From positions 1 through 21,272 of the IMG/VR virus record IMGVR_UViG_2617270964_000007: a DNA stretch of 21,272 nt. One strand, written 5' to 3'. Of this stretch, positions 2,934 to 21,180 are shown piece by piece. The notes beneath the pieces are model-generated. The model was given only the letters and a program-made list of their open reading frames with translations. It was not told where the DNA came from and did no database searches. The stretch is from a virus. Taxonomy: Duplodnaviria; Heunggongvirae; Uroviricota; Caudoviricetes. Each line of letters starts with the position of its first letter. The first letter of the stretch is position 1. The translations under genes were made by a program, and so were the position numbers.

Positions 2934-3278
2934 TTAGTCCTTGCGTAACTCGCTAATTCTTCTGTAAGTCTCTGGTGCTTTGTTTCCGTGTATCTTCATT
3001 TCAGACTTCAACAGATCAACGAGGGAATCCCATTCGTTGAGGATTCCTTTGAATGCCGGAACGCGCTTTGCAACCTTGTCGAATGAATCTCTGATTTCTG
3101 GAATCTGCTCAACAAGTGCAACGCATAGTCGGAAATCTGCTGCGTCATGTGGAGCGCCGAAGTGATGACCATAGATATTCTTTTTCAGTCCACATGCGAT
3201 TGAGGCAAGAGTTGCGCTACTGATGCCGACATCGCCAGTCGATTGCCATTTCAAAACCTTCATAGCCAAATCTGACAT
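2934..3278 (-). CDS. Hypothetical protein, 114 aa, int-proximal accessory gene
   Basis: ATG at 3278 with GGAG 7 nt upstream. I recognise no family. It sits in the xis-proximal accessory region of the leftward early operon. Confidence 0.5.
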   Translation of the reverse strand: MSDLAMKVLKWQSTGDVGISSATLASIACGLKKNIYGHHFGAPHDAADFRLCVALVEQIPEIRDSFDKVAKRVPAFKGILNEWDSLVDLLKSEMKIHGNKAPETYRRISELRKD

Positions 3279-3358: not shown

Positions 3359-3550
3359 CTATGAATTATGTTGTTTTTTAGCTTCAGCTTTCCATTCATC
3401 AAAGGCAGTGTCTTTGTTCATGGTGCTGATATTGATCTTACGGTCAATATCATATACACGCCACTCACCGTTAGGCCTCTCTTCGCATCTAACTAAGTAT
3501 GAATTGCCATTAATATCTATGCGTCTGTCTATTTGCATGAACATTTTCAA
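3359..3550 (-). CDS. Hypothetical small protein, about 61-63 aa (TTG at 3550 or ATG at 3544)
   Basis: ORF with AGAGGA 8-9 nt upstream of the TTG. Local sequence is visibly AT-rich. No family recognised. Confidence 0.4.
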   Translation of the reverse strand: MKMFMQIDRRIDINGNSYLVRCEERPNGEWRVYDIDRKINISTMNKDTAFDEWKAEAKKQHNS

Positions 3551-3664: not shown

Positions 3665-3946
3665 TTAGCAATTGATATTCACCTTTATCGCGTATACCTT
3701 TACCGGTTTATCACCGAAGTGGGGGTGTGTGATTGTTTTCACTTCATATCCTCCATACGGAACATCAATTCTGCGACTGGAGTCGTCGCGCTTCGGATAT
3801 CCCTTTGTGATAATCAGGCGGTCATACTCCCGGAACATAATTCGCTTATTCCAATAGTCATTACACAGGCGATACTCTTCCGTTTTCTCTCCTCGAATCA
3901 TGGCATCGAAGTATTCACCTTTGACGGCAAGTTGTAGGTTAGCCAC
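3665..3946 (-). CDS. Small PUA/ASCH-like domain protein (tentative), 93 aa, GTG start
   Basis: GTG at 3946 preceded by AGGAGG at optimal spacing. The N-terminus LQLAVKGEYFDAMIRGEKTEEYR resembles the beta-barrel opening of ASCH/PUA-like domains. The fold assignment is a guess from sequence pattern. Confidence 0.45.
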   Translation of the reverse strand: MANLQLAVKGEYFDAMIRGEKTEEYRLCNDYWNKRIMFREYDRLIITKGYPKRDDSSRRIDVPYGGYEVKTITHPHFGDKPVKVYAIKVNINC

Positions 3947-4673
3947 GGTTAACCTCCTGCGGCGGTTCTGGCAGCGGCATCCAGTGGGTTACGTCATCCA
4001 AGATATTTCCTGATAAATATGTGAAAGCTCTATATTTTTTGTAATCAATTGGACTCATTACCCAGTTCCAATATGCTGCCACTATTTGACCTTGACTAAA
4101 TGCCAGTAACATTTTGGTGTCGTCCGGCATTCGCTCACTACAGCTTATCCAACCATCCGGAGTTACCGGAGAGTTGCCATTTACATCGAAGTTTGGCTCT
4201 GCGTCCTGAATCAGGAGGATGTAGCCATTCTTGGCAGTATCAAGTTCTAACGCCTCGGTGACGGTGCCGAAATAGCGATTACCTAAATCAGCATCACAAG
4301 TACTTACATCAATGGAAACTTCCATGCCTTCGATTAATTCTGGCAAGTTGTAAGCTTGGCTTACAGGTTCGGCTTCCAGTTCTGCAATGCGCTTTTTTGC
4401 TGTTTCCAGCTCGCCCAGCAGCGCCAAGACGGTAGCCGGATTGGCTGCAGCGATGAATTCAGCATTGGCCTGCTGTTCCATTTGGAAATCTTCATCGAAA
4501 CCGCTTTCTGGATGCGCTCCTTCAATTCTGCAAATGGGAAGATATCCAACAACTTCACGATGAATTAGTGCATCACCAGCATCAAATCTCTCCTCTCCAT
4601 ATTCGAGCGACCACACACCACACGTTGCTTTCTCTGCCGCCTCACGCAGTGCCTGATAGTCAATCTTGCTCAC
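3939..4673 (-). CDS. Ead/Ea22-like protein with C-terminal DUF551-like domain; probable GTG start at 4673 (track ORF extends to 4694)
   Basis: AAAGGAGG lies 6 nt upstream of the GTG at 4673, giving [16 protein letters not shown]..., as Ead/Ea22-family proteins begin in my recollection. The C-terminal segment [11 protein letters not shown]...[10 protein letters not shown] resembles DUF551. Confidence 0.6.
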
Positions 4674-4837
4674 TGTTTGCCTCCTTTGCGCCACATCGCA
4701 TTCAGATATTTGTTTTGATTCACTGATGGAAAAGAATTTCTCTTAAGCAATTCCTCTCTCGATGGCATTGGCTTTACGCGTTGGCGAATAATCATTTCTG
4801 CCGGAAGAATGCCGGGATTGTATGCAAGTCCTCTCAT
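4670..4837 (-). CDS. Small basic hypothetical protein, 55 aa
   Basis: ATG at 4837 with AGAGGAA upstream. Its stop overlaps the start of the downstream Ea22-like gene (GTGA), suggesting translational coupling. Below the 60-aa ORF-track threshold. Confidence 0.3.
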
Positions 4838-5662: not shown

Positions 5663-6548
5663 TGGCAACCTCTAGTTTCGCTTTGCATTCTATGTAAATG
5701 GCTTGTACGTTCTGCTGCAATTTCATTCCAGATGTCAGGCGATATGCTTCTGCAAAATATCGCTTCAAATCATCCATGTTTTCTGCCTGAGCCATTTCAT
5801 CACAAAGAAGTTGTGCTTTTTCCATAATTTCCTGCTGGTGTTTCCGTTCATCTTCGCGGATATCTTCCTCTGATTTGTGCGGCATAACTGGTTCCTGATG
5901 CATACCTTCATCTTCGTTAAGCAGGTGAATGGCATTATCCAGTCGCTGGGCTTTAGGCCAGTATTTGCTGGCGCGTTTAACTATTGTTTTACGCGCCATC
6001 TCTTCCCAGAATGTTTTCCACGGTCCATTCTTTGCCTTGCTCGTTGCTTCCACTGCTTTAATTTCTGCCAGACTCATTTCTTCAGTCAGGTAGTCACCAT
6101 CTGCTGTTTTTACCGTGCAATAACCACCAACAATAGAGCCTCGCTCTCCAAATGCGTTGTATTTGTGAGTTGGTGCTGAATCAAGGCCGTTTGATTCATA
6201 GGTGTCGTTTGAGTACACCAGTTTGCATTGCCCCCACTTAATTGATCCTGTCGATTGCGCAAGATGAAGTAATCCCATGTAACTGATATCAAGGCACACC
6301 ATGCCGTCGCGAGGAACCAGATAAGCTAGTTTGCTGGCCGGGTTTAAGGTGATGCCGATCGCCGCAACATTGATGATGGCGTTCTGTGCGCTGGTTGGAT
6401 TTGCCAGTGCTGTTTTAGCCAGGTAATCGTTTTTCTGGAAATACTGAATTGCAAACTGGCTTTCCTTAGCCCATGTCACCGTCTGTTCAGTCAATGCTCC
6501 GCAGAATAACTGCTCTTGCTGTTTAACGAATTCAACGATATTGCTCAT
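5646..6548 (-). CDS. recT: RecT-family single-strand annealing recombinase, 300 aa
   Basis: ATG at 6548 with GGAGAAG upstream. The translation has the RecT/Red-beta core as I recognise it (…PRDGMVCLDISYMGLLHLA…FGERGSIVGGYC…). It sits in the recombination position of the leftward early operon. Confidence 0.8.
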   Translation of the reverse strand: MSNIVEFVKQQEQLFCGALTEQTVTWAKESQFAIQYFQKNDYLAKTALANPTSAQNAIINVAAIGITLNPASKLAYLVPRDGMVCLDISYMGLLHLAQSTGSIKWGQCKLVYSNDTYESNGLDSAPTHKYNAFGERGSIVGGYCTVKTADGDYLTEEMSLAEIKAVEATSKAKNGPWKTFWEEMARKTIVKRASKYWPKAQRLDNAIHLLNEDEGMHQEPVMPHKSEEDIREDERKHQQEIMEKAQLLCDEMAQAENMDDLKRYFAEAYRLTSGMKLQQNVQAIYIECKAKLEVASEQTV

Positions 6549-6856
6549 GCAGCTTCTCCATAAATATGTCTGCGTTTGAATATTGCGAAGGCATATTCAG
6601 CCTTAACTCTTTCGGTTATTGCATCCCAGAACCATTCAGCGGCTTTTTCCTGATAGTTACAGTCATCATCTTCCAGCCAGTCGATAGCGTCCTTAGTGTG
6701 TTCATCTGGTTTATATGAGCGAAGCATTTCGCTTATTGGGTCGCAACGTTTGCAGAGGCGATCAACTTCACTGTTGATTCGCTCGTAATCTTCATCAGTA
6801 AAACTTGCGATTATTTGCGATATTTCACGCTTATCATTCAGAGTCAGAATCATCAT
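6545..6856 (-). CDS. Hypothetical acidic protein, 103 aa
   Basis: ATG-ATG start at 6856 with AGGAGA upstream. Translationally coupled to recT (ATGA overlap). No family recognised. Confidence 0.5.
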   Translation of the reverse strand: MMILTLNDKREISQIIASFTDEDYERINSEVDRLCKRCDPISEMLRSYKPDEHTKDAIDWLEDDDCNYQEKAAEWFWDAITERVKAEYAFAIFKRRHIYGEAA

Positions 6857-7686: not shown

Positions 7687-8157
7687 CTAATAAAACACCC
7701 AGTTTTCTGTTTCTTGGTTGTGTCCAAAGTTATATTCAATATCTGGTGTTGATGTATCAATATTCTTCATCCCATCAACAAGAGTTGATACAACAGCCAA
7801 ATCTTGTTTGATTCTCATTAAATGGTATTTCTTCCGGCGAAATAAACTTTCAATGGCAAGTTTCTTCGTTGGGAATGCAAAAGATCTTTCTGCATTTTTT
7901 GCTACTTTCTTAATTGCATATCTATTTCTCTTTTGTTTCCATTCCTGTAACCACTGATTTGGTGCTGGTTTAAAATTAACGATCCAATACGCAGGAACCA
8001 ACCATGCATAATGCTCTGTCTGATGAAAAGCTATATATTGAAGTGCGAATATTTTGATTCCATCTTCTTCAACTGTCGCCTGGAATCTCCAGAAAACAGG
8101 CATTCCATCATGTTCAGTTTCTGATTCAGGAAAAGGTACGCTCCATGATATTGTCAT
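7687..8157 (-). CDS. Hypothetical protein, 156 aa, moron-like gene in the N-proximal region (the position occupied by ral/sieB in lambda)
   Basis: ATG at 8157 with GAGGTG upstream. The gene is visibly AT-rich compared with its neighbours and is followed by a hairpin and an intrinsic terminator. I recognise no family. Confidence 0.55.
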   Translation of the reverse strand: MTISWSVPFPESETEHDGMPVFWRFQATVEEDGIKIFALQYIAFHQTEHYAWLVPAYWIVNFKPAPNQWLQEWKQKRNRYAIKKVAKNAERSFAFPTKKLAIESLFRRKKYHLMRIKQDLAVVSTLVDGMKNIDTSTPDIEYNFGHNQETENWVFY

Positions 8158-12993: not shown

Positions 12994-13434
12994 ATGAAAA
13001 AACTAACCTTTGAAATTCGATCTCCAGCACATCAGCAAAACGCTATTCACGCAGTACAGCAAATCCTTCCAGACCCAACCAAACCAATCGTAGTAACCAT
13101 TCAGGAACGCAACCGCAGCTTAGACCAGAATAGAAAGCTTTGGGCTTGCCTTGGTGACGTCTCTCGTCAGGTTGAATGGCATGGTCGCTGGCTGGATGCA
13201 GAAAGCTGGAAGTGTGTGTTTACCGCAGCATTAAAGCAGCAGGACGTTGTTCCTAACCTTGCCGGGAATGGCTTTGTGGTAATAGGCCAGTCAACCAGCA
13301 GGATGCGTGTAGGCGAATTTGCGGAGCTATTAGAGCTTATACAGGCATTCGGTACAGAGCGTGGCGTTAAGTGGTCAGACGAAGCGCGACTGGCTCTCGA
13401 ATGGAAAGCGCGATGGGGAGATCGGGCAGCATGA
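12994..13434 (+). CDS. ninB: NinB (Orf-family recombination mediator), 146 aa
   Basis: ATG at 12994; the track ORF begins 18 nt upstream at a different start. The translation MKKLTFEIRSPAHQQNAIHAVQQILPD… matches lambda NinB as I recall it. Confidence 0.85.
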   Translation: MKKLTFEIRSPAHQQNAIHAVQQILPDPTKPIVVTIQERNRSLDQNRKLWACLGDVSRQVEWHGRWLDAESWKCVFTAALKQQDVVPNLAGNGFVVIGQSTSRMRVGEFAELLELIQAFGTERGVKWSDEARLALEWKARWGDRAA

Positions 13435-13958
13435 CTATCAAATCAAATACGCCAGCACACGACAAGGACTGCTGGCAAACGCCGCTTTGGCTTTTTGATG
13501 CACTGGATATTGAGTTTGGATTCTGGCTGGATTCGGCAGCGAGCGACAAAAATGCTCTGTGCGCTCACTGGCTAACTGAGGCCGACGATGCGCTCAATTC
13601 TGAGTGGGTAAGCCACGGTGCAATCTGGAATAACCCACCGTACAGCAATATCAGGCCGTGGGTGGAAAAAGCCGCTGAGCAGTGCATACAACAGCGACAG
13701 ACGGTAGTGATGCTTGTGCCAGAGGATATGTCTGTCGGATGGTTCAGCAAGGCTCTGGAGAGTGTTGACGAAGTTCGCATTATCACTGATGGACGGATTA
13801 ATTTTATCGAACCATCGACGGGGCTGGAGAAGAAGGGAAACAGCAAAGGCTCCATGCTGCTGATTTGGCGACCGTTCATCAGTCCTCGACGGATGTTTAC
13901 TACCGTATCCAAAGCGGCATTGATGGCGATCGGGCAGGGTGTCAGGAGGGCTGCATGA
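13431..13958 (+). CDS. Phage DNA N6-adenine methyltransferase (Dam family, NPPY motif)
   Basis: ATG at 13431 overlaps the ninB stop. It contains the catalytic motif WNNPPYS and the conserved WQTP motif near the N-terminus, typical of the phage Dam-family MTases. It sits between ninB and ninC, which are adjacent in lambda. Confidence 0.75.
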   Translation: MTIKSNTPAHDKDCWQTPLWLFDALDIEFGFWLDSAASDKNALCAHWLTEADDALNSEWVSHGAIWNNPPYSNIRPWVEKAAEQCIQQRQTVVMLVPEDMSVGWFSKALESVDEVRIITDGRINFIEPSTGLEKKGNSKGSMLLIWRPFISPRRMFTTVSKAALMAIGQGVRRAA

Positions 13959-14800
13959 TAAATGTCGTTAGTTTCTCAGGTGGCAGGACGTCAGCATATT
14001 TGCTCTGGCTAATGGAGCAAAAGCGACAGGCAGGTGAAGACGTGCATTACGTTTTCATGGATACAGGGGCAGAGCACCCTAAAACATATGAGTTCATCCG
14101 AAATATCGTCAGTAACTGGAAAATAGACTTACATTGCCTTCGTGTAATACCTAATCCAGAAATGGGGAAGGCCAGTAGTTATGAAGAGATAGGTGACAAT
14201 GATATTGGTCCAGATCTTATACCGTGGAAAAGGATGTTAAATAAATACGGACATCCATATATCGGCGGTGCGTTCTGTACCGACAGAATGAAGTCTGTTC
14301 CATTCACCAAATATTGTCAGGAAAAGTTTGGGAAAGGAAATTACATCACATGGCTTGGCATTCGCACAGATGAACCAAACAGGCTTAAAAGGGCTAATGG
14401 TTTTCGGTACCTGGCTGATATAAGCGATTTTGACAAACAGGATGTGCTTGATTGGTGGAGTGGGCAGAAGTTTGATCTTGGCATACAGGAGCATCTTGGT
14501 AATTGTGTTTTCTGTATAAAAAAAAGTATGCAAAAGGTTGCGCTGGCAGCCATGGATGAGCCAGAACTTGCAGATGCATTTATCAACATCCTTGATACAG
14601 AAATAAAAACAGGAAAGGAACCGGTTATGTATCGAGGGAATAATACACTTAAATCACTGATTGCCTTGTTTAGTGATATATCAAGAGATGAGTTAGCCTC
14701 AAGAATGACATCAATGCGACAGTATGATTCAGGTTCGTGTTCTGAATCATGTGAAGCATTTTCATGTCAGCTTGGATTTAATTTTGAGGATGCGGCATGA
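13955..14800 (+). CDS. ninC: NinC, PAPS-reductase-like PP-loop protein, 281 aa
   Basis: ATG at 13955 with AGGAGG upstream. PP-loop motif SFSGGRTS near the N-terminus and cysteine clusters CVFC and [10 protein letters not shown] near the C-terminus. The N-terminus [20 protein letters not shown] resembles lambda NinC as I recall. Confidence 0.8.
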
Positions 14801-20676: not shown

Positions 20677-21180
20677 TTATTGATAGTGTTTTATGTTCAG
20701 ATAATGCCCGATGACTTTGTCATGCAGCTCCACCGATTTTGAGAACGACAGCGACTTCCGTCCCAGCCGTGCCAGGTGCTGCCTCAGATTCAGGTTATGC
20801 CGCTCAATTCGCTGCGTATATCGCTTGCTGATTACGTGCAGCTTTCCCTTCAGGCGGGATTCATACAGCGGCCAGCCATCCGTCATCCATATCACCACGT
20901 CAAAGGGTGACAGCAGGCTCATAAGACGCCCCAGCGTCGCCATAGTGCGTTCACCGAAAACGTGCGCCACAACTGTCCTCCGTATCCTGTCATACGCGTA
21001 AAACAGCCAGCGCTGACGTGATTTAGCACCGACGTAGCCCCACTGTTCGTCCATTTCCGCGCAGACGATGACGTCACTGCCCGGCTGTATGCGCGAGGTT
21101 ACCGACTGCGGCCTGAGTTTTTTAAATGGCGGAAAATCGTGTTGAGGCCAACGCCCATAATGCGGGCGGTTGCCCGGCAT
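20677..21180 (-). CDS. insB: IS1 transposase InsB reading frame (expressed as the InsAB' fusion by -1 frameshift)
   Basis: The translation …[53 protein letters not shown]… is the IS1 InsB sequence. Confidence 0.88.

Follow-up and report, generated by a model that had tools for sequence, protein, structure and literature searches.

Two adjacent minus-strand genes of a lambda/P22-like Escherichia coli prophage, one encoding a 93-residue protein of the ASCH fold and the other a 244-residue fusion of an Ea22 region with a C-terminal DUF551 domain, assort independently in related phages and, as judged from these sequence comparisons, are not a functional pair. The explanation that accounts best for the whole of our results, and which we consider likely, is that they are two separate early accessory genes, of which one would provide a pro-lysogenic Ea22 scaffold carrying DUF551 and the other an ASCH protein acting on modified bases. 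Both genes are already recognized by standard annotation and the Ea22–DUF551 architecture is in print as variant Ea22_V2 (PMC10834534), so that a preliminary description made from the DNA alone went too far in calling them poorly characterized. As a discovery they carry little weight, being ordinary accessory genes rather than new ones.

Prophage context and gene structure

The window, by which we mean the whole stretch of 21,272 nucleotides analysed here (IMG/VR record IMGVR_UViG_2617270964_000007), opens with proA. Next comes a tRNA-Thr(CGU) gene (1369–1444), which sits directly before the integrase gene (1459–2619) and, standing between proA and integrase, marks the attachment site of the prophage and the left end of the element. 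From there the minus strand carries the tyrosine integrase, an HTH excisionase-like gene, two small function-unassigned genes, the ASCH gene, the Ea22–DUF551 gene and a DUF2737 gene, and beyond these a small HTH-like gene, Gp157, RecT, more small genes, an N-type antiterminator and a cI/LexA-type repressor. The plus-strand series runs through cII, O, a DnaB-type helicase, NinB, a Dam-type methylase, a PAPS-reductase-like gene, NinX, YbcO, RusA, Q, holin and a Rha-like gene, with IS1 last. The element is a lambda/P22-like E. coli prophage at a thrW-type site, and would have integrated at this tRNA-Thr(CGU) gene beside proA.

The leftward early strand carries the two genes in the interval from int/xis to RecT/N/cI, in keeping with their preliminary assignment to the early accessory pool of lambdoid phages; lambda workers know such a location as the exo-xis region. 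An early leftward accessory position, with recombination genes on one side and xis and int on the other, is where an Ea22 gene is expected and where Ea22_V2 is found, although the recombination module of the window phage is RecT/Gp157 and not the exo/bet of lambda. Both genes would be separate accessory members of the leftward early (pL- and N-dependent) operon. A scan for promoters and terminators gave no convincing internal promoter or terminator flanking them, and promoter-like sites around the two genes were fewer than in shuffled sequence. This is consistent with N-antiterminated read-through from pL, which, by extension from lambda biology and from published work on ea22 (PMC7093339), is the default expectation for their expression.

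Both open reading frames singled out in the preliminary description are present on the minus strand (Table 1), and their homologues and profile matches exclude chance frames. The small one falls into phrog_625, a PHROGs family without an assigned function (E = 4e-50), and has 627 homologues; the large one matches Ead_Ea22 (E = 1e-22) and DUF551 (E = 7e-22) and has at least 8000. The strong translation signals described earlier are equally real, each gene having AGGAGG six bases before a GTG start. The order given there, with the Ea22–DUF551 gene following downstream of the ASCH gene, is right in plus-strand coordinates but not in transcription, which runs from DUF2737 through Ea22–DUF551 to ASCH, so that the ASCH gene is the downstream one.

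For the larger gene, the mechanically called frame begins at 4694 and reads 251 residues, whereas the GTG at 4673 is the better start and gives 244. The latter is almost certainly the true start, since it has AGGAGG six bases 5′ of it, overlaps the DUF2737 stop as GTGA and yields a product of the same length as, and 100% identical to, a RefSeq protein of exactly 244 residues (P0121), named "ead/Ea22-like family protein". Further downstream, the GTG start of the ASCH gene overlaps the stop of the Ea22–DUF551 gene by 8 nt (GTGGCTAA). Overlapping starts are the norm across the whole operon, and DUF2737, Ea22–DUF551 and ASCH would be translationally coupled through their overlapping stop and start codons.

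Table 1. Coordinates of the two genes, their translation signals and their domains in the window
Feature	Position	Strand	Details
ASCH-fold protein gene, 93 aa	3665..3946	minus	GTG start, TAA stop
Ea22-family gene with C-terminal DUF551, 244 aa	3939..4673	minus	Ea22_V2-type architecture, GTG start
Shine-Dalgarno AGGAGG, ASCH gene	3953..3958	minus	6 nt before GTG; inside last codons of Ea22–DUF551 gene
Shine-Dalgarno AGGAGG, Ea22–DUF551 gene	4680..4685	minus	6 nt before GTG at 4673..4671
DUF2737 gene (context)	4670..4837	minus	TGA stop overlaps Ea22 GTG start (GTGA)
Ea22 N-terminal domain and short coiled coil, aa 1–101	4371..4673	minus	Pfam Ead_Ea22
Conserved middle segment, aa 102–168	4170..4370	minus	alignment of relatives
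DUF551 domain, aa 174–239	3957..4154	minus	hypervariable core between conserved flanks

Independent assortment of the two genes

We surveyed the neighbourhoods of ASCH genes on 80 IMG/VR contigs, all of them close relatives (93–99% identical to the window copy), and 76 of these were usable. A DUF551 gene stands directly upstream of ASCH in 25 of the 76 loci; in 51 the upstream gene is unrelated. By sequence inspection, from which all upstream labels were assigned, the products of these unrelated neighbours include Lar-like zinc-ribbon proteins, a Cys-rich protein resembling TraR/DksA, a small one that resembles a winged helix and another small one whose N-terminal segments are hydrophobic. Compared with the window, the contigs are about 100% identical in DNA within the ASCH gene and 50–98% identical over its ribosome-binding site, and identity is random beyond about 45 nt upstream of its start. 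An obligate gene pair was rejected on these counts and on the loss of similarity at the ribosome-binding site, and the 5′ boundary of ASCH resembles a recombination joint conserved where mosaic modules meet, a classic mosaic joint of lambdoid phages.

The same picture emerges from complete genomes. Parts of the 1151-bp two-gene region are present in 3271 of 5426 complete E. coli genomes, a measure of how widespread the ASCH family is in enterobacterial prophages, and at least 80% of the region is contiguous in only two of them, from which we conclude that the combination seen in the window is one shuffle among many.

The ribosome-binding site and start of the ASCH gene (CAGGAGGTTAACCGTGGCTAA; window 3939–3960, minus strand) are embedded in the 3′ end of whichever gene lies upstream. 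Unrelated upstream proteins in other phages end alike, in ...QEVNRG (or ...EEGRG) immediately before the stop codon, and the common ...QEVNRG tail is explained by the ASCH ribosome-binding site and start codon lying within their last codons. About one third of ASCH homologues have ATG in place of the GTG start.

A common operon and an 8-nt stop/start overlap might suggest that the Ea22–DUF551 and ASCH proteins are a two-component unit in which, for example, DUF551 recruits the ASCH enzyme to its target, but such overlaps are general in this operon. The DUF551 gene is the most frequent single class directly upstream of ASCH, yet it is outnumbered by unrelated neighbours taken together; similarity does not extend past the ASCH ribosome-binding site, and in other E. 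coli prophages the two are separated by further genes. Even P0242 and P0268, cluster representatives whose Ea22 N-terminus leads directly into the ASCH frame, cross the ribosome-binding site in a shifted frame and look like deletion derivatives. We regard a two-component unit as very unlikely, and treat the genes as independently assorting in what follows.

In three cluster representatives (P0242, P0268 and P0241), an Ea22-type N-terminus or another accessory protein runs into the ASCH domain by way of the ribosome-binding site, which is read in a shifted frame. Such proteins probably derive from deletions in prophages undergoing decay, although they could be genuine fusions of an Ea22 scaffold with ASCH. 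Separately, neither of the two proteins nor any of five neighbours matched a PADLOC model, and the pair was rejected as a defence system for that reason.

The Ea22–DUF551 protein

Both domains of the fusion proposed in the preliminary description were recovered in a single polypeptide, far over the Pfam gathering scores: Ead_Ea22 (PF13935) at 81.4 bits against 27 (E = 1.2e-22; residues 9–126 of the 251-residue reading) and DUF551 (PF04448) at 78.6 bits against 22 (E = 6.6e-22; profile positions 1–68 of 68). In PHROGs the protein matches phrog_60 (E = 1e-62), and a search of NCBIfam gave no model matching either it or the 93-residue protein. Among the homologues scored, the best 120 all carry both Pfam domains; names that occur are 'ead/Ea22-like family protein' and 'DUF551 domain-containing protein', and HK629_032, 95% identical, is one of them.

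The modular build of the protein was read from an alignment of 27 relatives. Residues 1–87 are nearly invariant and are followed by a coiled-coil segment that varies in length. At the other end, the core of DUF551 (residues ~184–229) is wholly different among proteins that are elsewhere at least 90% identical, and is bounded by conserved flanks (WISCSERMP on the N-terminal side, with the W...P and HW-P-P flanks present), a pattern that suggests cassette-like exchange of a binding module. The AlphaFold model of the full-length protein is poor (mean pLDDT 48), which we attribute to an alignment nearly invariant over the N-terminal two-thirds; the DUF551 part reaches 70–87 and shows four β-strands, and a helix is predicted with low confidence at residues 79–101. 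A fold search of the PDB with this model returned nothing significant, with weak Tudor/SH3-like hints for the DUF551 part.

The closest described relative is Ea22_V2 (Sci Rep 2024, PMC10834534). In the Stx-phage Ea22 variants reported there by Donaldson and colleagues, the N-terminal and coiled-coil region is common, as is a 63-residue segment absent from lambda Ea22, and the C-terminal domains are unrelated to one another, that of V2 being DUF551. Compared with V2 by its published description (PMC10834534), the window protein has the same N-terminal segment and coiled coil with IPR025153/PF13935, an extra conserved segment and a C-terminal DUF551 domain, and its middle segment (residues 102–168) is probably the 63-residue segment. 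It differs in having a short coiled coil, where some relatives have 28–60 extra residues, and its own variant of the DUF551 core. With lambda Ea22, which is pro-lysogenic and tetrameric (C-terminal domain, PDB 8DSX), it shares the Ead_Ea22 N-terminal region and coiled coil, the operon position and, presumably, the role of an oligomeric scaffold that displays a C-terminal domain. The displayed domains are nevertheless unrelated: that of lambda is an α/β dimer, neither the middle segment nor DUF551 is present in the lambda protein, and a PDB sequence search with the Ea22–DUF551 protein gave no match to the lambda C-terminal domain.

Full-length Ea22 is tetrameric (PMC10834534, PMC7093339), and ea22 was found by the same group to favour lysogeny and host survival, a phenotype measured on the lambda and Phi24B proteins only (PMC7093339). 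We infer that the N-terminal domain and coiled coil of the 244-residue protein would likewise act as an oligomerizing scaffold, and that the small β-rich DUF551 domain would be a module for target binding that can be exchanged. If it behaves like the Ea22 of lambda and Phi24B, the protein may tip the lysis–lysogeny decision towards lysogeny and host survival by binding a host partner. A swappable DUF551 domain on an oligomeric Ea22 scaffold is therefore a plausible handle on the host partner of Ea22.

Fold and sequence of the ASCH protein

The AlphaFold model of the 93-residue protein has a pLDDT of 87.5, two of the five models being of low confidence, and follows the order β1-α1-β2-α2-β3–6, with the octapeptide placed after a strand at residues 2–8 and a helix at residues 10–17. 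When it was compared with the PDB by Foldseek, ranks 1–17 went without exception to ASCH-family structures, and YTH domains, which belong to the same clan, came next; the ASCH/PUA-like fold anticipated from the DNA thus stood up to a check that could have returned an inconsistent one. The ASCH-family matches are 3IUW, 2Z0T, 1XNE, 5GUQ/5GUS, 1WK2, 1S04 and 9KYF/9KYH, with PH0355, PF0470, ZmASCH, PF0455 and YqfB among the names at the top. The scores that place the protein in the PUA-like β-barrel fold of ASCH are modest (E = 0.02–0.8, TM 0.48–0.58). Among its remoter matches in a library of predicted viral structures are proteins that bear the annotation DUF3850, ASCH or 'activating signal cointegrator'.

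At the sequence level the relationship is more distant. The protein scores 15.7 bits against Pfam ASCH (PF04266), below the gathering score of 21.2 (E = 0.024), and its homologues carry the RefSeq name 'ASCH domain-containing protein'. An exhaustive profile search extended the family to 1222 cluster representatives at 50% identity. The N-terminal motif noticed in the preliminary description is the ASCH octapeptide GxKxxExR, which here reads G19-E-K21-T-E-E24-Y-R26: across 83 diverse sequences (41–76% identical to the query), K21 is invariant and G19, E24 and R26 are at least 90% conserved, with W32, G49-Y50-P51, H74 and F77-G78 as further conserved positions. Eight of these 83 relatives gave weak Pfam ASCH matches (best E = 0.001) and two gave DUF3850 matches. 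Searches of PDB chains with the single sequence and with profiles of 34 and 83 sequences yielded no significant ASCH match, the sole hint from the profile searches being 3IUW (E = 0.49), over the N-terminal motif. A fair description is that of a divergent, minimal ASCH/DUF3850-like family, which has the fold and the motif and lies under the curated sequence threshold.

Among characterized structures, three comparisons place the family more closely. GKER-type ASCH proteins (Thermus TthASCH, 2DP9; human EOLA1; the ASCH domain of TRIP4; Zymomonas ZmASCH, 5GUQ) share with it GxKxxExR, including its lysine and glutamate, and a small PUA-like β-barrel, and ZmASCH is among its top structural matches (TMq 0.56–0.58). 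Identity over the structural alignments is nevertheless 11–17%, the phage protein is shorter at 93 residues and falls under the Pfam ASCH threshold, and the GYP and xTHxHFG motifs are specific to the phage family. E. coli YqfB, an N4-acetylcytidine amidohydrolase (9KYF/9KYH), is likewise a single domain, of 103 residues, with the octapeptide in register (G19, K21, R26) and TMq 0.52–0.55. Alignment of the family profile to YqfB with hhalign pairs positions 19, 21, 24 and 26 exactly with the same positions in YqfB, but covers 18 columns of the octapeptide region and is not significant (E = 0.14); with Glu24 in place of the Thr24 of YqfB, the phage protein is not of the YqfB (GKTR) type. Finally DUF3850 (PF12961), an ASCH-related family common in phages, provides the best PDB match, the Enterococcus 'activating signal cointegrator' 3IUW (E = 0.02, probability 0.99), whose N-terminal β1-α1-octapeptide region aligns to the phage family profile, although sequence matches to DUF3850, which several relatives show weakly, are all under threshold and TM is 0.48–0.55.

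Extensions rich in Cys and similar to zinc ribbons recur in more distant members of the ASCH family, at the N-terminus in P0270, P0281, P0292, P0331 and P0351 and at the C-terminus in P0295, P0315 and P0364. In some close relatives, a Lar-like zinc-ribbon gene is found directly upstream of ASCH. Examined as candidate Lar-type zinc ribbons, the extensions gave no Pfam match at threshold (Lar, E = 0.4), and the resemblance is a lead only.

Possible function of the ASCH protein

In E. coli, N4-acetylcytidine (ac4C) occurs at the wobble position of elongator tRNA-Met. All 19 ASCH proteins tested in a recent preprint are reported to remove ac4C from tRNA, and in the 'GKER' subgroup (TthASCH, EOLA1, TRIP4) the lysine and glutamate of the octapeptide are the essential dyad for this activity (bioRxiv 10.64898/2026.02.27.708502). 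Since the phage protein is of the GKER type and conservation is highest at precisely those residues, an amidohydrolase or reader for ac4C-like bases is, by analogy, the most economical hypothesis. The protein would be a minimal ASCH β-barrel of the 'GKER' type that binds a cytosine-type base, N4-acylated or modified in some other way, within RNA or nucleotides, and probably also hydrolyses it, with K21 and E24 as the putative catalytic dyad; we infer that ac4C, in E. coli on elongator tRNA-Met, is the likeliest substrate. The erasure of ac4C by ASCH proteins with the same octapeptide, as reported in 2026, provides a cheap and specific assay for the phage family; were the family active, it would exemplify a temperate phage that edits the epitranscriptome of its host.

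Strict conservation of a catalytic-type Lys/Glu pair is needless in a pure binder, which makes it improbable that the ASCH protein is instead a non-catalytic reader or sponge of a modified nucleotide or base, one that blunts a host defence sensing or depending on such molecules. Candidate ligands would be m6-dAMP, modified DNA or the signals of PUA-domain or type IV restriction systems. Recognition of modified bases is common in domains of the PUA/ASCH clan, and m6-dAMP triggers a PUA-Cal-HAD defence of E. coli (bioRxiv 10.64898/2026.01.15.699771); the prophage has a Dam-type methyltransferase of its own, and the accessory region of its relatives also holds Lar-like restriction-alleviation and anti-RecBCD genes. 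The protein matches no PADLOC model or known anti-defence family, however, and a structural match in the viral library annotated 'restriction alleviation protein' owes that label to the unverified annotation of a longer protein.

A third possibility is that the 93-residue protein retains the ASCH domain as a structural relic and serves only as a small accessory factor that binds RNA, DNA or protein, without taking part in base modification. Its length (against 103–150 residues in canonical ASCH proteins) and its score under the Pfam threshold point that way, as does the caution, in the preprint that reported the activity, that it may be an evolutionary remnant in some members (bioRxiv 10.64898/2026.02.27.708502). 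Strong purifying selection on the octapeptide, on GYP and on H74/F77-G78 (xTHxHFG), with K21 invariant in a family of 1222 cluster representatives, speaks against this, and we hold a relic to be decidedly unlikely.

Of the catalytic reading itself, a fuller version can be drawn by analogy, although in all its details we think it a long shot. In it, the 93-residue protein would be a minimal amidohydrolase of the GKER ASCH type, made from pL at an early stage of infection or induction, and would remove ac4C from the elongator tRNA-Met of the host, or else hydrolyse or sequester some related modified nucleotide, and so retune host translation or defeat a modification-sensing defence. Independently of this, the hypervariable DUF551 domain on its Ea22 scaffold would form the interface of an arms race with a variable host protein.

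Other features of the prophage

Elsewhere in the minus-strand early operon, four conserved open reading frames (2934–3278, 3359–3550, 6545–6856 and 7687–8157) have strong PHROG matches, to phrog_1229, 16329, 3486 and 1636, respectively, and returned no Pfam, PADLOC or functional annotation. On the plus strand, in the nin region, the gene for a Dam-type N6-adenine methyltransferase (13371–13958) overlaps the start of the PAPS-reductase-like gene (13865–14800; phrog_33262), and the two form a pair related to DNA modification that shares its prophage with the ASCH gene. Towards the right-hand end, an IS1 transposase open reading frame (20677–21180, minus strand) comes right after the Rha/ORF11CD3 antirepressor-like gene, at the place expected for late genes, and the prophage may be interrupted or truncated at this IS1, close to where the window ends (21272).
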